Under the pieces are notes generated by a model. The model was not told the origin of the DNA. It was given only the letters and a program-made list of their open reading frames with translations, and ran no database searches. The position numbers and the translations under genes were made by a program. Positions 2,701-54,391 of a stretch of 64,000 nt of DNA are shown here, one piece after another. Within the stretch, counting starts at the first letter, position 1; each line of letters opens with the position of its first letter. This stretch comes from Candidatus Nomurabacteria bacterium RIFCSPHIGHO2_02_40_30 (GTDB lineage Bacteria; Patescibacteriota; Minisyncoccia; Phycocordibacterales; UBA9973): contig MFTV01000016.1 of the NCBI GenBank assembly GCA_001785445.1, positions 159,859 to 223,858 of the forward strand. The letters are read 5' to 3'.

Positions 2701-4740
2701 TTGGTGGAAGACCACCTAAAGGAACTTAACAAAGAACAGAGGGAAGCGGCACTTCACATGAAAGGGCCGATTTTGATAGTGGCTGGCGCTGGAGCAGGGA
2801 AGACAAAAACTATCACGCACAGAATAGTGAATTTAATAAAAAACGGAGTTGCCCCTGAACGTATTTTGGCTGTAACTTTCACCAACAAAGCCGCCAAGGA
2901 AATGCGAGAACGCGTTATTGCCGAAATTGAAAAAAATGCCCAAATGACTCAAGAGCAAGACAATATTCCGTTTGTCAGCACTTTTCATTCGCTTGGAGTT
3001 TACATAATAAAAGAAAATGCGCGAATATTGGGGCTGACAAAATATTTTACAATTTTGGACGAGTCCGACTCTACTTCGCTCGTCAAAGAAGCGTTGAAAG
3101 AGATAGACATAGACCCCAAAATGTACGACCCCAAGAAAATAAAAAATATAATTAGCCGAGAAAAAGGAAAATTTATACACCTAGCCGACTATACAGAAAC
3201 AAACAGCAACAATACTTTGGGTAAAATAGTGGCGCAGGTTTGGAATTTATATGAAAAGAAAAAAGAAAAAGAAAATTCCTTGGATTTTGATGACTTGCTT
3301 TTAAAGGCGACAAAATTATTGAAAGATAACGCTGAAATTAGAAAAATATATCAGGAGAAATGGGAATATATACACATTGACGAGTATCAAGACACCAACG
3401 AAGTGCAATATTTGATGTCAAAATTGCTTTCGGAGAACAATAAAAACATCTGCGTGGTGGGAGATGCCGACCAAAACATATATTCGTGGCGGGGAGCAAA
3501 TTTGAAAAACATTTTAAGCTTTGAAAAAGATTATCCTGATGCGAAAATAGTTCTTTTAGAACAAAATTACCGTTCCACTCAAAATATTCTGGAAGCAGCC
3601 AATGTCGTCATCAAGAAAAATAAATACCGACCGGATAAAAATTTGTTTACCAAAAATAAAACCGGAGAAAAAATTTCTTTATACGAAGCACTCGATGAAA
3701 ACGACGAAGCAGACTTCGTCGCTACAAAAATTTTAGAAGTACTAGACAACGGAGTGGGCACTATTTTTGATAGGTCGCTGTCTGTGCGTGCTCGCACAGC
3801 GCTGCCTCTCGGCTCGTCAGCCTGCGAGACACCCCTCAAAAACACGCCCACTCCGTTGTCTGAAATAGCCATATTATATAGAGCCAATTTTCAGTCTAGG
3901 GCGCTGGAAGAAGCAATGCTCCGGTACAATATTTCATACCAAGTTTTAGGTGTGAAATTTTTTGAAAGAAAAGAAATTAAAGATACCTTGGCCTATCTGC
4001 GCGCTGCATTAAACAGAGACAGCCTTTCGGACGTAAAAAGAATCATAAATTTCCCTACACGGGGCATTGGCAAGGTCACCTTGGCTAAAATTTTTGCAAA
4101 TGACGTAGAAAGTCTGCCCATAAAAGTAAAAATCAAGGTTAATAACTTTTATAAAATTTTGGAAGACATAGGAGAAAAAATAAAAACTAGCAAAACCTCG
4201 GAAGTTATAAAGTTTGTGGTAAAAAAGTCCGGCATAGAAAGTGAATTATCAAATGGTACTGAAGAAGACATAGAAAGACTTGAAAATATAAAAGAACTAG
4301 CTACACTGGCGCTGAAGTATGATAATTTAGAAAATGGGGGAGGCGTAGAAAAGCTCTTGGAAGATGCGTCACTTGCAAGCGATCAAGACTCAATAATGAT
4401 TGAAGAGAAAAAAGAAACAAAAAACGCAGTTAAGCTTATGACGGTACACGCATCAAAGGGACTTGAATTTAAATATGTTTTTATCACTGGCCTTGAAGAC
4501 GGACTTTTCCCGCATCAGAAGCACAATGTGGAGGCAAGTGAAGATAGCGAAGAAGAACGTAGACTTTTCTATGTAGCGCTTACTCGCGCCAAAGAGAAGT
4601 TATTTCTATCATTTACAAATTTTCGCACCATCTTCGGTTCACGACAGATAAATGCGCCGTCGGAATTCGTTTCGGACATATCGGCAGGTTTATTAGAAAA
4701 AGAAGGGGAAAAAAATAAAATAAAAACTATCTATATATAA
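2701..4740 (+). CDS. pcrA: ATP-dependent DNA helicase, UvrD/PcrA/Rep family (TTG start)
   Basis: Walker A GAGAGKTKTITHRI; motifs AVTFTNKAAKEMRER, DEYQDTN, VVGDADQNIYSWRGA, ILYRANFQSRALEEA; C-terminal HASKGLEFKYVFITG and YVALTRAKEKL. Confidence 0.9.
   Translation: MVEDHLKELNKEQREAALHMKGPILIVAGAGAGKTKTITHRIVNLIKNGVAPERILAVTFTNKAAKEMRERVIAEIEKNAQMTQEQDNIPFVSTFHSLGVYIIKENARILGLTKYFTILDESDSTSLVKEALKEIDIDPKMYDPKKIKNIISREKGKFIHLADYTETNSNNTLGKIVAQVWNLYEKKKEKENSLDFDDLLLKATKLLKDNAEIRKIYQEKWEYIHIDEYQDTNEVQYLMSKLLSENNKNICVVGDADQNIYSWRGANLKNILSFEKDYPDAKIVLLEQNYRSTQNILEAANVVIKKNKYRPDKNLFTKNKTGEKISLYEALDENDEADFVATKILEVLDNGVGTIFDRSLSVRARTALPLGSSACETPLKNTPTPLSEIAILYRANFQSRALEEAMLRYNISYQVLGVKFFERKEIKDTLAYLRAALNRDSLSDVKRIINFPTRGIGKVTLAKIFANDVESLPIKVKIKVNNFYKILEDIGEKIKTSKTSEVIKFVVKKSGIESELSNGTEEDIERLENIKELATLALKYDNLENGGGVEKLLEDASLASDQDSIMIEEKKETKNAVKLMTVHASKGLEFKYVFITGLEDGLFPHQKHNVEASEDSEEERRLFYVALTRAKEKLFLSFTNFRTIFGSRQINAPSEFVSDISAGLLEKEGEKNKIKTIYI
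3745..3860. repeat. GC-rich palindromic element inserted in-frame in pcrA, bounded by perfect 15-bp inverted repeats
   Basis: gacaacggagtgggc (3745-3759) and gcccactccgttgtc (3846-3860) are exact reverse complements; an inner hairpin ctgtgcgtgctcgcacag (3782-3799) is present; the enclosed ~60% GC segment encodes TIFDRSLSVRARTALPLGSSACETPLKNTPTP, which sits between the conserved DNGVG and (A)ILYR(A/S)N helicase motifs and has no counterpart in UvrD/PcrA homologs. Confidence 0.55.
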
Positions 4741-12354: not shown

Positions 12355-12397
12355 GTAGTTAAAAAATAGAAAGTTATAAAGTTTATAAAGAAAAAAC

Positions 12398-13602: not shown

Positions 13603-14034
13603 ATGCAATTCAAAGTACCACAATTTTTAGACATAGAAGACAAAATTTTCGGCCCTTTTACTTTTAGGGAGTTCATTTACTTGGCCGGTGGCGCAGGGTT
13701 GTGTTTTGTGCTTTATAGATTATTGGGATTTTACTTAGGGGCTATACCAATTCTCGCCATGGCAGCGCTGGCGCTGGCGCTTACTTTCTACAAGCCTAAC
13801 AACAAGCCATTTATAAATATGATTGAAGCTGGACTCAAATACATGACTCAAGACAAGCTGTATGTGTGGAAAAAACCAGAAGCCAGACTAAATACCAAAG
13901 AGCAAAACAAAGTAGTAAGTGAAGAAAAAGGAATACCAAAGCCAAATGAAGAAATAAGACTAAGTGGAAGCAAGTTACGGGACTTAGCTTGGAGTCTGGA
14001 TGTAATGGATTTAAACCAGCATGCAGATAAATGA
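13603..14034 (+). CDS. Small two-TM membrane protein, VirB3/PrgI-like candidate
   Basis: 143 aa; two adjacent hydrophobic helices (FIYLAGGAGLCFVLYRLLGFYLGAIPILAMAALALALTF); sits immediately 5' of the VirB4-like ORFs, as in Gram-positive T4SS loci. Confidence 0.4.
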   Translation: MQFKVPQFLDIEDKIFGPFTFREFIYLAGGAGLCFVLYRLLGFYLGAIPILAMAALALALTFYKPNNKPFINMIEAGLKYMTQDKLYVWKKPEARLNTKEQNKVVSEEKGIPKPNEEIRLSGSKLRDLAWSLDVMDLNQHADK

Positions 14035-14045
14035 TATAAAAATAT

Positions 14046-14684
14046 ATGGCATTAAATGCAAAAGCAACTCAAGAGTTTGTCCCAATCAAGGAAGTACGTG
14101 ATGGCATCATCGTCCTAAAAGACGGCGGACTTCGGGCCATAATATTGGCGAATTCCACCAATTTATCCTTGAAGTCAGACGACGAACAAAAAGCGACAAT
14201 ACTTCAGTTTCAAAACTTTTTAAATACTTTGGATTTTTCTATTCAAATATCAGTGCAGTCAAGGAGGCTGGACATTCGGCCGTATCTTTTGCTTTTGGAA
14301 AATAGAATAAAATTACAAAATGAACCATTGCTTAAGTTGCAAACCAAAGAATACATAGAGTTTATTAGAAATTTTACCGATACGGTAAGCATAATGACCA
14401 AGAGTTTCTTTGTGGTGGTGCCGTACACGCACACTGTGCTAAAATCAGACACCGGCATTCTCGGGGGGCTCTTTTCCCGAAAAAACAAAGAAGAAATTAA
14501 GATTGCCAAACAAGAAGACTTCGAAGAAAAAAGATCGCAGCTGGAAGAGCGAGTAAGCGTCATCCAACAAGGTCTTAACCGTTGCGGTATAAAGTCGGCT
14601 CAACTAGGAACCGAAGAAATTGTGGAATTATTTTACAAGGTTTTTAACCCTGGGGAGTTGGAAGGTAAAATTAAGATGGAATAG
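14046..14684 (+). CDS. N-terminal portion of the VirB4/TraE/PrgJ-family T4SS ATPase, as a separate ORF
   Basis: FVPIKEVRDGIIVLKDGGLRAIILANSTNLSLKSDDEQKATILQFQNFLNTLDFSIQISVQSRRLD resembles the conserved N-terminus of Gram-positive VirB4-like ATPases; 212 aa plus the 628-aa next ORF gives ~840 aa, a typical VirB4 length. Confidence 0.5.
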   Translation: MALNAKATQEFVPIKEVRDGIIVLKDGGLRAIILANSTNLSLKSDDEQKATILQFQNFLNTLDFSIQISVQSRRLDIRPYLLLLENRIKLQNEPLLKLQTKEYIEFIRNFTDTVSIMTKSFFVVVPYTHTVLKSDTGILGGLFSRKNKEEIKIAKQEDFEEKRSQLEERVSVIQQGLNRCGIKSAQLGTEEIVELFYKVFNPGELEGKIKME

Positions 14685-14686
14685 TC

Positions 14687-14802
14687 CCGTTAGAAGCCGC
14701 GGTCGCAGTTTAATATATAATATGTTAATAGAAAATATAAAATTTAATAACTTAATCAAGCATAGTCTCGGTCTGATGACCGCGACCTGCTTCTAACGGG
14801 AT
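14687..14802. repeat. 116-bp element with GC-rich terminal inverted repeats and an AT-rich core, separating the two VirB4 ORFs
   Basis: tcccgttagaagc (left end) and gcttctaacggga (right end) are a perfect 13-bp inverted repeat, extended by imperfect GC-rich subterminal repeats (cgcggtcgcag / gaccgcgacc); the core contains a TATAAT-like box. Confidence 0.5.
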
Positions 14803-16687
14803 GGGAATCTTACAAAAGTGGTTTGGAAAAAAAAATAATGACGTAAACAGTAGTTCCGCGGGAAGGGGTGGGATGCAAGCGTCTACTCTCCCAGTGGTGC
14901 CGGAAGAGATTTACAAAAAAGCCAGTCTGGAATTCCAAGACATCATTGCGCCGTCGGCGCTTAAAATTGACTCGAAGTCTATAAGTTTGGGAGATAAAAT
15001 CGCCCGTACTTTCTTCATCATATCTTATCCTAGATTTTTGACCGATAATTGGTTTTCTCCGATAATTAATTTGGATAAAGTTTTCGATATTTCACTTTTT
15101 ATTCACCCGATAGATACTTCTCTGATGCTGCGGCAGTTCCAGAAAAAAGTAGCTGAAGTGCAAAGCCAAATAAATGTACGTGAAAGCAAGGGCATGGTTC
15201 GCGACCCCATGCTCGACACCGCCTACCAAGACTTGGAAGGCCTGCGAGATAACCTGATTCAAGCCCAACAGAAAATGTTCGATGTCGGCATTTACATTAC
15301 CATTTATGCCGACAATGAAATGGACCTATTCAAGCTAGAAAATGAAATCAAGTCAATGCTGGAGTCAAAGCTAATATACATCAAGCCAGCTCTGTTCCAA
15401 CAAGAAGATGGTTTTAAGAGCGTCATACCGATAGAAAATGACCTGTTAGGCATTAATCAAAAATTAAATTCGGAGCCGCTTTCAAGCGTGTTTCCATTTA
15501 TTTCTTTCGACCTAACCTCTGACAGAGGAATACTCTATGGCATCAACAGGCATAACTCCAGCCTGGTTATTTTCGACCGGTTTTCTCTGGAAAACTACAA
15601 CTCGGTAACCTTCGCCAAAGCAGGGTCCGGCAAATCATATGCGACCAAACTCGAAATTCTAAGGTCCCTAATGTTTGACATCGATGTTATCGTTATTGAT
15701 CCGGAAAGGGAATATGAATTTCTTTCCGAGGCTGTCGGGGGGAGGTATTTTAATATATCTCTTTCTTCCGACCACCACATCAATCCATTTGACTTGCCAA
15801 TACCGCGCGAAGACGAAACCGCCGAGGATGTTTTGCGATCAAATATTATAAACTTAGTCGGGCTTTTCCGGCTTATGCTCGGCGGGTTGACTCCGGAAGA
15901 AGACTCAATCGTAGATAAGGCTATTTCAGAAACTTATGCCATCAAAGATATCACTCCGGAGTCGGATTTTTCGAATATTGAACCGCCGCTCCTTTCGGAC
16001 TTTGAAATGGTGCTCTCTGGCATGGAAGGCAGCGATTCGATCGTGGTGCGTTTGGCAAAATATACCAAAGGCTCTTGGGCGACATTTCTAAACAGACCGT
16101 CAAATGTGGATATAAATAAAAAATTCGTTGTTTTTTCCGTTCGAGACATGGAAGACGAATTAAAACCGGTGGCCATGTATATAATCATGCATTATATATG
16201 GAATGCCATACGCAAAAATTTGAAGAAACGTTTACTGGTGGTGGATGAAGCATGGTGGATGATGAAGTCTGAAGATACCGCTTCATTCTTGTATTCCTTG
16301 GCTAAAAGAGGAAGAAAATACTACCTTGGGCTTGCTACTATCACTCAAGATGCGGCGGACTTTATGAATTCTCCGTATGGGGTGCCGATAATCACTAACT
16401 CCTCTATTCAACTTCTCCTGAAACAGTCTCCGACCACTATTGATATTTTACAAAAAACTTTCAACCTGACCGATGAAGAAAAGTACCTGCTTTTGGAGTC
16501 GGGCGTGGGCGAAGGGATATTCTTTGCGGGGCTGAAACATGTGGCCATTAAAATAATCGCTTCTTATACCGAAGACCAAATCATTACCTCTGACCCATCG
16601 CAAATATTATCAAACAGAAAAGCTAAAGAAGATTTTGAAAAAGGAGAAATGGCGCCTGCCAACCCTCCGGAAAAAGTGTTACAATAA
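14801..16687 (+). CDS. virB4: Type IV secretion ATPase, VirB4/TraC/TrbE family (C-terminal ATPase portion)
   Basis: Walker A FAKAGSGKSYAT; Walker B LLVVDEAWWMM; conserved LGDKIARTFFIISYPRFL region; ITQDAADF motif. Confidence 0.8.
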   Translation: MGILQKWFGKKNNDVNSSSAGRGGMQASTLPVVPEEIYKKASLEFQDIIAPSALKIDSKSISLGDKIARTFFIISYPRFLTDNWFSPIINLDKVFDISLFIHPIDTSLMLRQFQKKVAEVQSQINVRESKGMVRDPMLDTAYQDLEGLRDNLIQAQQKMFDVGIYITIYADNEMDLFKLENEIKSMLESKLIYIKPALFQQEDGFKSVIPIENDLLGINQKLNSEPLSSVFPFISFDLTSDRGILYGINRHNSSLVIFDRFSLENYNSVTFAKAGSGKSYATKLEILRSLMFDIDVIVIDPEREYEFLSEAVGGRYFNISLSSDHHINPFDLPIPREDETAEDVLRSNIINLVGLFRLMLGGLTPEEDSIVDKAISETYAIKDITPESDFSNIEPPLLSDFEMVLSGMEGSDSIVVRLAKYTKGSWATFLNRPSNVDINKKFVVFSVRDMEDELKPVAMYIIMHYIWNAIRKNLKKRLLVVDEAWWMMKSEDTASFLYSLAKRGRKYYLGLATITQDAADFMNSPYGVPIITNSSIQLLLKQSPTTIDILQKTFNLTDEEKYLLLESGVGEGIFFAGLKHVAIKIIASYTEDQIITSDPSQILSNRKAKEDFEKGEMAPANPPEKVLQ

Positions 16688-47551: not shown

Positions 47552-48307
47552 ATGAAGAAAATTATTATTGGCAATTGGAAAATGAATCCGCTTACACTAA
47601 AAGATGCGGGAAAATTGTTTTCCAGTGTTACTAAGGGGATATACGGTATCAAAAAAACAGATGTAGTTATTTGCCCGCCAGTTTTATATATTGAAAGACT
47701 GAAAAAACTGTCTAAAAAAATATCCCTAGGCGCGCAAGATGCCTTTTGGGGGGAAGTTGGTCCTTTTACTGGGCAAATTTCCGCCCATATGCTTTATAAT
47801 GCAGGTATACGGTATGTTATTTTGGGGCATTCAGAAAGACGGGAACTGGGCGAAACAAGTGAAGTGGTCAATAAAAAAGTTAAAGAATCTCTCTCTGCTG
47901 GGCTTCGGCCGATACTCTGTATTGGGGAAAGTATCCGAGATGAAAGTCACGGATACTTTAACTTGGTTAAAAATCAACTAGAGGAATGCTTAAATGGGGT
48001 CTCTAAAAATTCTATTTCTAAAGTTATTGTTATGTATGAGCCAGTGTGGGCTATATCAAGTACTGCTAATCGCAGAGATGCCACTTCAGGGGACTGCCGC
48101 GAGATGGCTATTTTTATCCGCAAAATTCTTTCAGATAAATTTGGCGGGGAAGTTGCCAATGTGAGAATTATTTACGGCGGTTCCGTGAGTGGAAAAAATG
48201 CGGAAGATTTTTTAAAGAATGGCGGCGTGGATGGGTTGCTACCCGGTCGTGCGAGCTTGGATGCCAAAAAGTTTGTGGAAATTATCAAGATAGCAGAGAA
48301 AATATGA
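47552..48307 (+). CDS. tpiA: Triosephosphate isomerase
   Basis: IIGNWKMN; ILGHSERR; VMYEPVWAI; IIYGGSV. Confidence 0.9.
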   Translation: MKKIIIGNWKMNPLTLKDAGKLFSSVTKGIYGIKKTDVVICPPVLYIERLKKLSKKISLGAQDAFWGEVGPFTGQISAHMLYNAGIRYVILGHSERRELGETSEVVNKKVKESLSAGLRPILCIGESIRDESHGYFNLVKNQLEECLNGVSKNSISKVIVMYEPVWAISSTANRRDATSGDCREMAIFIRKILSDKFGGEVANVRIIYGGSVSGKNAEDFLKNGGVDGLLPGRASLDAKKFVEIIKIAEKI

Positions 48308-49512: not shown

Positions 49513-49909
49513 CAGAAATAATTTTTTTTATTACCTCGTCTACTTCTCCTTTTTCATATTTTTTGGTGGCAAATTTAGGCAGACCGTCGCTGAAATATCT
49601 TGGAATCAAATGTATATGGAAATGCGGTACGTCTGTCCCTCCCACGGAGACTTGCACATAGTCGCATGATAATCCATTTTTTATGGAGAGCATTAATTTT
49701 TTAACTAATTTAAAAATCTCCGACACGGTTTCATCATCGGCTTCCTGCATCCAGACGAAATGCTTTTTAGGTATGACGAGGATATGGCCGCTGGAGACCG
49801 GCTCTATATCTAAAAAGGCGAAGAAACTATCATTTTCATAAATCTTGTCGCAAGGAATTTCTTTGTTTATAATTTTGCAAAAAATACAATCATTCATAGA
49901 AAGTTTCAC
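49502..49909 (-). CDS. HIT-family nucleotide hydrolase (probable GTG start, or the internal Met)
   Basis: Histidine-triad motif VPHFHIHLIP; 135 aa. Confidence 0.8.
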   Translation of the reverse strand: MKLSMNDCIFCKIINKEIPCDKIYENDSFFAFLDIEPVSSGHILVIPKKHFVWMQEADDETVSEIFKLVKKLMLSIKNGLSCDYVQVSVGGTDVPHFHIHLIPRYFSDGLPKFATKKYEKGEVDEVIKKIISAIA

Positions 49910-49920
49910 AAAATCAAAGT

Positions 49921-49976
49921 TTTTTCAGGTCCTCGGTTTCCTGGGGCCCCGCGCCCCAGCCAGACCATTCAAAAAC
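49921..49976. repeat. Intergenic copy of the GC-rich palindromic mini-element also found inside ksgA
   Basis: The reverse complement gtttttgaatggtctggctggggcgcggggccccaggaaaccgaggacctgaaaaa matches the ksgA copy in both arms, while the central stem differs but keeps self-complementarity (cggg...cccg vs tggggc...gcccca). Confidence 0.55.
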
Positions 49977-50020
49977 TTTATTTTGCAAAACTTTCTATAT
50001 TATATGCTAAAATTCCACTT

Positions 50021-52179: not shown

Positions 52180-53628
52180 ATGCGGGACAGGATTTTCTAC
52201 TCAATATGTTTTGGTTTTGTGCTTGGAGTACTGTGGGGTTCTTTTGTTTCTACAGATTTGTATTTGGTTTTCTTATTTGCTGAGATTGCTTTTGCGCTAT
52301 TTTTATTCTTTTCTTTAATTTCCCAAAATAGCTGGGGGATTATCGCAAGTATTTTTATTTTGACTTTTGTTTTTGGCTTATGGAGATTCAGCATAGCAGA
52401 CAGAGTTGCGCCAATTGTGGTTTCTATGCATGGCGAGATAGTGGATGAACCGACCATGGGAGAAAATAATCAAAAGTTGATAGTGCAAACCAAAGAAACT
52501 ATAATTTTAATTACTACTGATTTTGAAAATAATTATAAATACGGGGATATAATCAATTTTTCCGGTAAACTGGAAAAACCAGAAAACTTTATTACCGACC
52601 AAGGCAAAGAATTTGATTATATAAATTATTTAAGAAAAGATGGTATTTTTTATGTAATAAGTTTCCCCAAAGTAGAGATTATCTCACGAGGGAATGGTAA
52701 TTTTATTCAAGCTTTTTTATTTTCTGTTAAAGAGAAGTTTCTAGAAAAAATGAATCTGGCAATACAGACTCCAGAGAGTCTCTTGATGGGGGGTCTTATT
52801 TTGGGAGAAAAAGCTTCTTTTAGTGCCCCAATGAGGAAAAGTTTTGTTGATACCGGAACGATACATATAATAGCGCTCTCTGGCTATAATGTGACGATAG
52901 TGGCCGAATGGCTTATGAAGTTGTTTGCCCAAATACCCTATGCGTCCAAAAATCTTGGTATTGGTATAGGGATTTTCACAATCTTACTTTTCGTATTAAT
53001 GACAGGTGGCAGCTCCACAGCCATCCGGGCGGGGATTATGGCAGTTTTAGCATTAATTGCCCGTGCGACCGGCAGAAATTATGATGTCGCGCGGGCTCTC
53101 ATTCTGGCGGGGGTATTTATGATTTTACTCAATCCATTTGTGCTGGTGTATGACGTGTCTTTTCAGCTTTCTTTCATCGCTACAGTGGCGGTGATATTTT
53201 TTACACCAAAGATAGAAAAGTATTTTTTATGGGTGACGAAAAGTTTTGGTCTGCGAGACATTATTTCTGTTACCTGCGCCACATATATTTTCATCATGCC
53301 TTTTATTCTTTACAAAATGGGCAATCTTTCCATAGTAGCTCTGCCCGCTAATATTTTAATTCTTCCCCTTATTCCATTTACTATGTTCCTCGGTTTTCTC
53401 ACAAGTTTTGTAGGGCTTATTTCTTATGTACCTTCTGTGCCATTAGGCTATATTTCGTACTTATTTCTACACTACGAGCTTGGCGTTATAAATTTTTTCG
53501 CAAATATTCCTTTTGCCTCTCTTTCATTTCCTAATTTTCCATTTTTACTAACACTAGCTATCTACGCATATTTTATTTACGTGCTTTTCGGCAAAAGTGT
53601 TAAAAAAACTTTTGAAACAAATTTTTAA
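52180..53628 (+). CDS. comEC: DNA internalisation competence protein ComEC/Rec2, membrane channel portion (DUF4131 plus competence domain) without the C-terminal MBL domain
   Basis: Multiple TM helices; competence-domain motif LLMGGLILGEKASFSAPMRKSFVDTGTIHIIALSGYNVTIVAEWL. Confidence 0.75.
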   Translation: MRDRIFYSICFGFVLGVLWGSFVSTDLYLVFLFAEIAFALFLFFSLISQNSWGIIASIFILTFVFGLWRFSIADRVAPIVVSMHGEIVDEPTMGENNQKLIVQTKETIILITTDFENNYKYGDIINFSGKLEKPENFITDQGKEFDYINYLRKDGIFYVISFPKVEIISRGNGNFIQAFLFSVKEKFLEKMNLAIQTPESLLMGGLILGEKASFSAPMRKSFVDTGTIHIIALSGYNVTIVAEWLMKLFAQIPYASKNLGIGIGIFTILLFVLMTGGSSTAIRAGIMAVLALIARATGRNYDVARALILAGVFMILLNPFVLVYDVSFQLSFIATVAVIFFTPKIEKYFLWVTKSFGLRDIISVTCATYIFIMPFILYKMGNLSIVALPANILILPLIPFTMFLGFLTSFVGLISYVPSVPLGYISYLFLHYELGVINFFANIPFASLSFPNFPFLLTLAIYAYFIYVLFGKSVKKTFETNF

Positions 53629-53708
53629 GGGGTTTTGAGCTCGACGGAGCGAAAACTTCAAGATTTTTTAAGCTTCAAAAAATCTGTACCGACAAAAATT
53701 TCGGTTTC
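53629..53708. terminator. Conserved multi-hairpin intergenic module, copy 2, between convergent comEC and sodA
   Basis: ggggttttgagctcgacggagcgaaaacttcaagattttttaagcttcaaaaaatctgtaccgacaaaaatttcggt; same architecture as copy 1, with compensatory changes in hairpin 1 (gctc/gagc vs ggct/agcc). Confidence 0.55.
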
Positions 53709-53719
53709 TAAAGTTTTTT

Positions 53720-54391
53720 TTATAAAGCCTCTTTGAAGTTTTTTTCTATTACTTCCCAGTTTAAGTTTACGAAAAAGTCTTCCACGTAATCTTTTTTCCC
53801 ACCCGGGCTATAGTCTGCGATGTAGGCATGTTCCCACATATCCAAGGCGAGTACCACAGCGCATCCGGAGAGCTGTCCGAGCTCATGATCTCCGACATAA
53901 GCATTCAAGAGGCATTTGTCTTTTTTGTCATAATACAGCATCGCCCAGCCGATGCCTCGGCTCATGGCTATGGCCTTGAAACGAGCGAGCCAAGCTTCAA
54001 AGGAGCCCGAAGTAGATTCTATTGCCTTATGTAATTCTCCATCTTTTGAAATTATTTTTGCTCCGTTTGAAAGGGCGTCGAAGTATATTTCGTGGTTACG
54101 CATGCCATCATACTCGAAACCAAACCTTCTTTGTATTTCCCCCAGCTCGTAGGCATATTTCTCCGAGTCTTTTGCGAGCTCCTCTATTTTTTGTAAAATT
54201 AAATTTGTATTTTTTACATAGCCGGCATAGAGCTTCAAGTGGTCTTCAATGGTTTTGGCAGATATTCCTTTAAGTGCCGGGATGTTAAACTTTTTTTCTT
54301 CAAACTTCTTGAGCATGTTAATATTGTACCATGTTTCAAAGTCGCAAGAAGTATGCTCTGTTGATTTTCGCCCTGTTACTTTTGGTGGCAA
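53720..54391 (-). CDS. sodA: Fe/Mn superoxide dismutase
   Basis: N-terminal helical domain and C-terminal DMWEHAYIADY...NWEVIEKNF motif characteristic of Fe/Mn-SOD. Confidence 0.85.
   Translation of the reverse strand: MPPKVTGRKSTEHTSCDFETWYNINMLKKFEEKKFNIPALKGISAKTIEDHLKLYAGYVKNTNLILQKIEELAKDSEKYAYELGEIQRRFGFEYDGMRNHEIYFDALSNGAKIISKDGELHKAIESTSGSFEAWLARFKAIAMSRGIGWAMLYYDKKDKCLLNAYVGDHELGQLSGCAVVLALDMWEHAYIADYSPGGKKDYVEDFFVNLNWEVIEKNFKEAL

Follow-up and report, generated by a model that had tools for sequence, protein, structure and literature searches.

Small mobile repeats that sit on start codons are rare and, to our knowledge, only MIRUs, the interspersed repetitive units of mycobacteria, were previously known to behave as start-codon repeats with a coupled open reading frame (ORF). 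MIRUs (Supply et al. 1997, summarised in PMC12548453 and PMC3184786) are described as mobile repeats that insert at start codons so that an internal ORF becomes coupled to the gene (PMC12548453), and they have tetranucleotide direct repeats, imperfect terminal inverted repeats and ORFs that overlap their neighbours (PMC3184786). Here we analyse a stretch of 64,000 nucleotides from Candidatus Nomurabacteria bacterium RIFCSPHIGHO2_02_40_30 (contig MFTV01000016.1, positions 159,859 to 223,858 of the forward strand; hereafter the window, whose own numbering is used throughout), in which a palindromic element of 117 bp lies between two ORFs that correspond to the N-terminus and the body of a VirB4-type ATPase of a type IV secretion system (T4SS). 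An ancestral two-cistron VirB4 that was later invaded by a MIRU-like mobile element, with translational coupling keeping the insertion harmless, is the likely explanation of this arrangement.

The VirB4 gene pair and its ancestral division

ORF1 (14046..14684, + strand; stop TAG at 14682-14684) encodes a stand-alone TraC-like or VirB4 N-terminal-domain protein of 212 aa and ORF2 (14801..16687, + strand) a VirB4-type ATPase body of 628 aa with a Walker A/B P-loop domain, the gap between them being 116 nt. ORF2 is a VirB4/TraC-type type IV secretion ATPase: it scores 361.7 bits against the NCBIfam profile conju_CD1110 (CD1110-family VirB4-like ATPase; cut-off 325, profile positions 181-733 of 752) and 88.3 bits against Pfam P-loop_TraG (cut-off 25.8), is also matched by AAA_10, and retrieves VirB4 (4ag5, E = 1.3e-39) as well as TrwK from the PDB. 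The homology of ORF1 rests on a fused homologue, the 797-aa VirB4 P0264, and on NCBIfam profiles. Its residues 1-206 align with residues 1-213 of P0264 (37% identity, E = 4e-43), and it matches conju_CD1110 at positions 2-102 and VirB4_plasma at positions 102-233, below the whole-protein cut-offs as expected of a fragment. The precomputed Pfam family of ORF1 is PF26593 TraC-like, and ORF1 alone gave no match in the PDB search and none in the local Pfam copy. ORF2 residues 46-610 align with P0264 residues 231-796 at 56% identity and, judged by these collinear alignments, ORF1 and ORF2 together equal one VirB4 in content, as the earlier note on this DNA had proposed from the letters of the two ORFs.

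We compared the junction in 80 loci from 80 related species. ORF1 and ORF2 lie in separate frames in every one of them, all three relative phases occur, and in about half of the loci the two genes are only 1-8 nt apart. The best 120 of 8000 protein matches to ORF1 are all stand-alone proteins of 211-217 aa, and among 50%-identity cluster representatives the best 150 stand alone as well, with one fused exception. In the closest relatives (89-90% aa identity) a spacer of 4-7 nt separates an intact stop from an intact start without any element, and these empty junctions read GAATAA-ATTT-ATGGGAATT or GAATAA-AAATAT-ATGGGAATT. The C-terminus of ORF1 (..E*) and the N-terminus of ORF2 (MGI..) in the window are the same as in these element-free relatives. 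By this comparison the division of VirB4 is ancestral in Nomurabacteria/Paceibacteria, the two genes are naturally separate cistrons, and the 117-bp element is to be read as a later, lineage-specific insertion at a short ORF1/ORF2 spacer, onto the start codon of ORF2.

The earlier note had weighed three explanations, namely a MITE-like insertion that split the gene, a natural two-subunit arrangement and a pseudogenising disruption, and it is the second that describes the true state. A transposable element of the miniature inverted-repeat type (MITE) that cut a once-continuous VirB4, making the split recent and caused by the element, would fit the collinearity of the pair with the fused P0264, and by sequence arithmetic the deletion of 116 or 119 nt would bring the two frames into register. 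Such a history is nevertheless hardly credible because the relatives are split at the same point without any element, and in three relative frames; it is already refuted by their empty, already-split junctions, with spacers of 4-7 nt in the closest of them, an outcome that the earlier note had itself named as contrary to its insertion scenario. Moreover, ORF1 ends and ORF2 begins exactly as in element-free relatives, and the family to which the element belongs is located at the start codons of unrelated genes. An intron-like or bypass-type removal that restores one long VirB4 was considered too and is unneeded, given that relatives are split without an insert. Decay of the locus into a pseudogene, with VirB4 function disrupted by the element, has nothing in its favour beyond the interruption itself and is almost certainly wrong, since ORF1 and ORF2 are both of full length, free of frameshifts and 85-92% identical to hundreds of homologues; copies of the element also stand before essential genes, among them rpsD, secY, ssb and genes for tRNA synthetases.

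The surrounding operon is of the Gram-positive T4SS type. A PrgI-family (VirB3-like) gene (13603..14034, + strand; Pfam PrgI E = 5.9e-10) adjoins ORF1 upstream, a T4SS pilin/VanY protein is encoded downstream, and the gene order prgI-ORF1-ORF2 is the same in relatives.

The 117-bp element and its family

The MITE-like palindromic element occupies 14685..14801 (+ strand) with termini T...A, and its last base is the A of the ATG of ORF2. A perfect 13-nt inverted repeat, TCCCGTTAGAAGC / GCTTCTAACGGGA, bounds it at 14685-14697 / 14789-14801, followed inwards by a GC-rich repeat, GGTCGC / GCGACC, at 14701-14706 / 14782-14787 and by an AT-rich core. The left arm (14685..14706, + strand), nearly invariant across copies, consists of T plus CCCGTTAGAAGC as lower stem, a CGC bulge and GGTCGC as upper stem. 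The right arm (14778..14801, + strand) reads GACCGCGACC-T-GCTTCTAACGGG plus A and holds the last codons of a mini-ORF, its TAA stop and a 4-nt spacer, CGGG. This mini-ORF of 24 codons, MLIENIKFNNLIKHSLGLMTATCF (14722..14796, + strand), starts in the AT-rich apical part and its TAA (14794-14796) stands 4 nt before the ATG of ORF2. Folded as RNA, the 117 nt reach -40.7 kcal/mol, whereas 200 dinucleotide shuffles give -20.4±3.2 (z = -6.4, none as good), and the strong fold together with the perfect inverted repeat marks the element as real and not a chance feature. The earlier note had thus described the gap of 116 bp, its 13-bp terminal repeats, the GC-rich subterminal repeats and the AT-rich core correctly, with the amendment that the repeat runs one base into ORF2; its TATAAT-like box exists as a hexamer at 14716-14721 (+ strand), directly against the ATG of the mini-ORF, and is unsupported as a promoter. 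A consensus promoter scan gave no + strand site inside the element, and the spacing of TATAAT to any start is unlike that of the window's -10 boxes, which lie 6-7 nt upstream of ATG.

Several other identities were considered for the element and set aside. No intrinsic terminator was called at the hairpin, which is followed by ATGGGAATC and is not such a terminator because it lacks a U-tract. Rfam 15 offered nothing better than a plant microRNA model (19 bits; gathering score 100) and no match for 66-nt variants of the family, and the CUGAUGA of the window is not conserved in other copies, which leaves no known RNA family, ribozyme or riboswitch. A dif/Xer-like site, suggested by TATGTTAA in the core, was rejected by eye on account of a spacing to the putative XerC arm that varies among copies, and integron attC-like sites (GTTAGAA...TTCTAAC), likewise judged by eye, have a box order that is the reverse of attC.

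Within the window the element is alone: the 13-mer does not recur in the 64 kb, even allowing 2 mismatches, and nhmmer likewise gives just one family copy. Beyond the window, one arm or the other turned up in at least 120 metagenome stretches, and a profile search across the fetched loci yielded 154 merged copies in 121 sources, of which 27 carry 2 or more copies within 15 kb, with up to 3 copies within 3-7 kb. By these counts the family is a widespread small mobile element of Patescibacteria. The arms of about 25 nt are nearly invariant (T-CCCGTTAGAAGC-CGC-GGTCGC ... GACCGCGACC-T-GCTTCTAACGGG-A), while the cores range from 86% identity to unalignable. Copies measure 66-125 bp, with a cluster at 115-119 nt and short forms of 77-82 and 66-71 nt. 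Of 89 non-redundant copies, 82 end in T...A; the 4-bp flanks are identical in 52 of these 89 and match at 3 of 4 positions in 10 more, against at most 4 perfect cases in shifted controls. The duplicated 4-mer is TGNN in 81 of the 89 copies and the base before its left copy is usually A, and so the target is A|TGNN, a start codon. C...G-ended copies (L093, L159) stand at GTG starts, with the old ATG still visible on the left.

Filled and empty sites support insertion directly. At the filled site of locus L067 the sequence runs ATT-ATGGG[T...A]TGGGAATTTTTGAT, and the empty sites of L051 and L052 read ATT-ATGGGAATTTTTGAT. The element occupies the same ORF1/ORF2 junction as in the window in L067 and L112, and the junction one step upstream (prgI/ORF1) in L007, L016, L026, L076 and L141. 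In its core the window copy is 86% identical to that of L137 and 81% to those of L016 and L195, all before other genes, as against 69% to the same-site copy of L067, and the VirB4 genes of the window are not especially close to those of L067. Since the window core is closer to copies at other genes, the site was hit independently in the two lineages. Terminal inverted repeats, target-site duplication, filled and empty sites, small size, lack of a transposase and dispersed copies were all found, which confirms the MITE-like nature suggested in the earlier note; by its structure the element is a non-autonomous MITE-like insertion that matches the MITE definition apart from the parent element. 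Two distant arm pairs, in L153 and L133, were considered as autonomous partners and enclose rpsM/rpsK and other ordinary ORFs, with no transposase. The family was not found in viral contigs, where two matches in GC-rich DNA were due to chance, and a literature search gave no paper with the arm sequence and none describing such an element in the Candidate Phyla Radiation.

The family has several variants. About 20% of copies (e.g. L145, L155, L160, L191, L199) have the right arm GCTTCTAAACGGG, in which an extra A bulges the lower stem and widens the gap from the mini-ORF stop to the ATG of the gene to 5 nt. A subfamily has its upper stem changed on both sides, to GATCGC / GCGATC. Tandem or nested copies with composite lengths of 176-194 nt occur in L124 (~3994-4105 and adjacent), L181 (6620-6805) and L111 (1169-1363); in L124 a further left arm comes immediately after the right arm of one element and an ATGAAT. 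A GC-rich short variant of 66-71 nt (L086, L119, L127, L156, L165, L187, L198; 137 nt in L146) keeps the same outer 12-nt arms, mostly with C...G termini, and changes the sequence of the inner hairpin while retaining its pairing (CTCGCGAAGCGAG, CTGCCGAAGGCAG, GCCTAGTAAGGC), followed by a conserved GCTACGGCC-CCTTGGGGCGACC. This variant lies away from start codons, with duplications TTGA, TCAA, TTTA and CCCG, and has no Rfam match. In L137/L180, L164 and L088, as in the window at 14682-14685, the upstream stop (TAG or TAA) is flush with the first T of the element and the left duplicate is missing, so that stop and downstream start lie opposite one another at the hairpin base; a deletion or a different mode of insertion may lie behind these copies.

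Start codons, the mini-ORF and the proposed coupling

The family is tied to start codons with a strict polarity. Its right arm abuts an ATG or GTG in 83 of 92 non-redundant copies, 78 of these starts opening at least 60 codons, while the left arm abuts a start codon in 0 of 67. The ORF after the right arm has a median length of 212 aa, compared to 4 aa in control frames. Genes found there include ssb, rpsD, murG, topA, ftsA/W, secY, leuS, alaS, mreB, rpmE, recR and pilB, which are mostly housekeeping and often essential; 75 downstream proteins contain 97 Pfam families, and rpsD stands in an rpsM-rpsK-rpsD context. A co-directional gene ends at most 400 nt upstream in 65 of 79 copies, and at most 31 nt upstream in about 40, which makes most copies operon-internal. 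Where neighbours had formerly overlapped as ATGA, the target duplication keeps both the stop and the start. Owing to the symmetrical ends, insertion in the reverse orientation would rebuild an ATG as well, and since this orientation is never seen, something polar inside the element matters.

An open frame ends in the right arm. The right arm reads GCTTC-TAA-CGGG-ATG, with the TAA 4 nt before the ATG of the gene, and the frame ending at this TAA is open over a median of 26.5 codons upstream, compared to 5 and 12 in the other two frames. Of 90 copies, 51 have a mini-ORF that begins with ATG, spans 15 codons or more and stops at the TAA (control frames, 1/90 and 3/90), where 300 shuffles of the core give an expectation of 8.0±2.6 and a maximum of 16. 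Such a mini-ORF is found in the majority of full-length copies, that of the window among them. An internal in-frame ATG occurs in 44 copies, 21-118 nt into the element (mostly 34-58), in the AT-rich apical part, and nearly all mini-ORFs initiated there have 18-25 codons, with a mode of 24 and an end in ..LTATCF. All in-frame forms of ~80 nt and some long forms start at the old ATG instead and read through the left arm (M-x-PVRSRGR...). A bridging upstream ORF from the old ATG was rejected as the general rule, since of 52 copies with a preserved old ATG just 17 have it; the internal mini-ORF is more general. In the core, T makes up 15% of codon position 1 but 32% and 31% of positions 2 and 3, as one would expect under selection against stops.

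A tiny ORF of this kind also occurs in an unrelated family of AT-rich palindromic repeats with ACTTTATAA / AAGTTATAAAGT arm units, which occupies the same T4SS junctions in other species (L008, L013, L016, L017, L019, L029, L037, L045, L050, L053, L070) and has left a remnant at ~12368-12397 of the window. There an ORF of 2-16 codons (MNF...) stops 2-10 nt before the ATG of the gene in 11 of 12 cases.

The 46 long ORFs of the window show no Shine-Dalgarno (SD) motifs upstream. In many of them the ATG is preceded, at a distance of 6-7 nt, by the end of an extended -10 box (TGnTAnAAT) (e.g. at 47552, 50021, 57382 and 61461 on the + strand and 58704, 54316 and 22551 on the - strand), which implies widespread leaderless mRNAs, and operon-internal genes follow their neighbour by 1-12 nt and are preceded just by A/T-rich sequence. 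Coupling by termination and reinitiation needs overlaps or very short distances (PMC10666635), and the 4 nt between the mini-ORF stop and the ATG fall within such distances (PMC10666635, PMC6728339), making coupling plausible. Furthermore, the ATG of ORF2 is the closing pair of a strong helix and would be inaccessible unless that helix is opened.

In the coupled-insertion scenario that we favour, the element inserts with a 4-bp target duplication, almost always of the TGNN of a start codon, leaving the old ATG behind on its left, and its terminal A together with the duplicated TG recreates the ATG of the gene flush with the right arm. Ribosomes on the mini-ORF would then melt the hairpin that sequesters the start of ORF2, terminate 4 nt upstream of the ATG and reinitiate on ORF2, so that expression of the downstream gene might stay largely intact after insertion in a genome that uses no SD sequences. 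The comparisons show the ancestral division, the insertion, the target duplication, the tie to start codons, the polarity and a selected open frame, and they support the anatomy of the element strongly and its presumed mode of action moderately; the mini-ORF is probably translated and coupled to the gene, and a mobilising enzyme probably moved the family. Several observations weigh against this scenario. About 20% of copies have no clear target duplication, and the window copy itself lacks the left duplicate, the TAG of ORF1 being flush with the first T of the element; the expected insertion product minus a single 9-nt deletion equals the observed window sequence, and such a deletion may have removed the duplicate. 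In 39 of 90 copies the frame that stops at the TAA holds no mini-ORF of 15 or more codons with an ATG start, and in the diverged copy of L126 compensatory changes in both arms destroy the TAA. One-sided arm changes comprise 10 G-U (+ strand) and 11 A-C cases and, since these wobble changes have no strand bias, selection on an RNA hairpin over selection on DNA terminal repeats is unproven. The association with start codons may reflect target choice or selection after insertion, and no autonomous partner or transposase was found between such arms in the 1.3 Mb of fetched loci.

Three further explanations compete with coupling. The AT-rich core might hold a portable outward promoter that transcribes the mini-ORF, possibly leaderless, and the downstream gene, making ORF2 transcriptionally independent; the earlier note had similarly suggested that the core supplies a promoter for the distal half. 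Such a promoter would suit the -10-like hexamers of the core (TTTAAT lies 7 nt before the mini-ORF ATG in the window, and two copies of L164 have a perfect TGTGTATAAT at the same distance), the position of the native promoters of this genome 6-7 nt upstream of ATGs, and the precedent of Neisseria REP2 and Borrelia repeats, which carry a promoter, a ribosome-binding site (RBS) and an ATG (PMC3184786). We nonetheless regard it as unlikely, given that the scan of the window copy found no + strand site, the hexamers before mini-ORF ATGs show no clear or sharp spacing peak at 6-7 nt, and most copies are operon-internal, a few nt after a co-directional gene. Members of 66-82 nt have no AT core, and among these the 77-82-nt forms still stand on start codons with a frame open from the old ATG. 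The hairpin could instead be functional as RNA, through RNase III-type processing or REP-like 3' protection of the ORF1 message, with an incidental mini-ORF; the amounts of the two VirB4 subunits would then be uncoupled, or a leaderless ORF2 message with a 5'-AUG generated. MITE hairpins in mRNAs are known as RNA-level signals, Correia/NEMIS being processed by RNase III and REP (repetitive extragenic palindromic) elements stabilising upstream mRNA, and the very stable fold, arms whose conservation far exceeds that of the core and which include some compensatory double changes, a start codon exactly at the helix base and the apparent reliance of the genome on leaderless initiation all agree with such a role. 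It seems quite unlikely, however, as it leaves unexplained the open frame and codon periodicity of the core and the strict polarity of a nearly symmetrical hairpin; one-sided arm changes lack a + strand wobble bias, and neither a U-tract, as an intrinsic terminator would have, nor an Rfam match was found.

A purely selfish MITE, whose mini-ORF is a leftover of the start and end of a parent transposase gene and whose start-codon bias is target preference alone, would account for the terminal repeats, the 4-bp duplication, the multiple copies and the filled and empty sites. Many insertion sequences have their transposase stop within the right terminal repeat, and the GC-rich 66-71-nt C..G variants away from start codons, with duplications such as TTGA, TCAA and CCCG, are also compatible with selfishness. 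We find this very unlikely even so, because cores that have diverged to 60-86% identity or beyond alignment still keep the TAA frame open and avoid T at codon position 1, because the reverse orientation would rebuild an ATG too and yet is seen in 0 of 67, and because in 11 of 12 cases the AT-rich repeat family, unrelated but present at the same junctions, likewise has a terminal mini-ORF whose stop precedes the ATG by 2-10 nt. A bolder extension of the coupling scenario, which we put forward only tentatively and doubt more than we believe, would see the family as a mobile 'ribosome hand-over cassette' that Patescibacteria, being SD-less and largely leaderless, have co-opted. The cassette would seek start codons and provide housekeeping genes inside operons with a ribosome entry site of their own, and several unrelated repeat families would have converged on this design. 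The AUG in the open AT-rich loop would be the entry site, and the mini-ORF would then unzip the hairpin and end 4 nt before the gene. If this were true, start-codon-targeted transposition with built-in coupling would be a general strategy beyond the single mycobacterial precedent, and the family a natural, portable alternative to the SD sequence.

Other repeats, implications and comparison with known systems

The window and its relatives contain further repeats. The earlier note had pointed to an in-frame element of the same length in pcrA; a repeat of 118 bp is indeed present there (3744-3861), within the ORF 2701-4740 (PcrA/UvrD helicase), with perfect 16-nt arms AGACAACGGAGTGGGC / GCCCACTCCGTTGTCT and a GC-rich core, but it belongs to a different family. 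Its arms are unrelated to those of the VirB4 element and occur in 0 of the 208 fetched loci, and on the basis of arms and core it was rejected as a second family copy. Compared with PcrA 1pjr, the helicase has 36 additional in-frame residues (query residues 333-368) where this repeat lies, and the repeat resembles Rickettsia-type in-frame palindromic insertions. AT-rich inverted-repeat pairs of ~100-120 bp lie at 25868-25980, 53602-53720, 49896-49998 and 20875-20971; at the first two, the ends of converging genes lie on either side, and these pairs may be terminator-like elements that work in both directions or may form another repeat family. In different Nomurabacteria, at least 4 further families of intergenic hairpin repeats occupy the spacers prgI/ORF1 and ORF1/ORF2, among them AATTCGTAATTCG arms in L011, L027, L036, L069 and L074, GCCTAGAGCCTAGA arms in L038, L039, L047 and L075, AGCTAAAAGCTAAA arms in L041 and L070, and a CTAGGCAAGACCTAAC hairpin in L005, L009, L010 and L011. 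ACTTTATAACTTT arms represent another repeat family present at these junctions, and several of the further families have arms of 7-8-nt tandem units in inverted orientation.

For annotation, VirB4 is here an ordinary two-cistron enzyme and not a transposon-broken one, and both ORFs should be kept as functional. Elements of this kind will mislead start-site annotation as well as gene-fusion and gene-split calls in metagenome-assembled genomes. By rebuilding the start codon with its own last base and carrying a mini-ORF placed for termination and reinitiation, the family shows how tiny, gene-dense genomes can survive a transposon on the start codons of such essential genes as ssb, rpsD, secY and those for tRNA synthetases, and it offers a concrete handle on translation start in organisms without SD sequences. 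Together, this structurally different family of Patescibacteria and the second, unrelated mini-ORF family suggest convergent 'translationally transparent' mobile DNA.

The two-gene form of VirB4 has a parallel in TrsD/TraD plus TrsE of Gram-positive conjugative plasmids, where a stand-alone homologue of the VirB4 N-terminus of ~200 aa likewise lies just upstream of the ATPase gene. Unlike TrsD/TraD, ORF1 is a distant analogue or relative, the Patescibacteria form being a large family of its own (PF26593 TraC-like); against the TrsD/TraD profile NF041427 it scores 23.3 bits (E = 4.7e-5) where the curated cut-off is 200 bits, so that it is not a member. As to the element, Correia/NEMIS of Neisseria, Nezha of cyanobacteria and ERIC share with it a size of ~100-150 bp, terminal inverted repeats, target-site duplication, the lack of a transposase, a long RNA stem-loop, filled and empty sites between relatives and frequent co-transcription with neighbours. 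However, the sites that they duplicate are TA or others, they have no special link to start codons and no conserved mini-ORF that stops before an ATG is known in them, and for several of them a parent insertion sequence is known or inferred, whereas the 1.3 Mb searched here contained none for the family. REPINs resemble it in their two conserved inverted sequences of ~25 nt with a less conserved spacer, their ~100-nt hairpin, many copies per genome and mobilisation in trans. They are mobilised by RAYTs, make no target duplication and are extragenic without start-codon precision, each REP being itself a small palindrome, and the 4-bp target duplication of the family places it outside the REPIN / REP-RAYT definition.

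Closer in function are repeats that supply information for translation start. Neisseria REP2 and the Borrelia upstream repeats lie directly upstream of many genes, provide such information and have internal stem-loops (PMC3184786); REP2 differs in carrying the promoter, the RBS and the ATG of the gene itself and in having no terminal inverted repeats (PMC3184786), while the family leaves the old ATG behind and forms a new one from its last base and the target duplication, which would be fed by the mini-ORF. Synthetic bicistronic designs also use a short leader ORF that delivers ribosomes and removes structure at the downstream start (PMC12548453), but they are engineered and have SD sequences, whereas the family is natural, mobile and SD-less. 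The closest known analogue is the MIRU. The likeness extends to short repeats in operons that do not look coding (40-100 bp in MIRUs, 66-125 bp in the family), start-codon insertion, flanking direct repeats of four nucleotides, inverted repeats that are imperfect both at the ends and inside, and the notion that both minimise the harm of insertion. The two are unrelated in sequence, with the family in Patescibacteria and MIRUs in Actinobacteria; the arms of the family are long, nearly perfect and invariant and its hairpin reaches about -40 kcal/mol, its own terminal base is the first base of the start codon, and no tandem arrays of the variable-number type were seen apart from one adjacent pair in L124. 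Its mini-ORF stops 4 nt before the ATG (TAA-CGGG-ATG), where the MIRU ORF overlaps the ATG by 4 nt. Start-codon insertion within operons, tetranucleotide repeats and a predicted mini-ORF positioned for coupling are thus common to both, and by its anatomy the family works like a MIRU without being a member of that group, representing a structurally new type among the rare start-codon mobile repeats.

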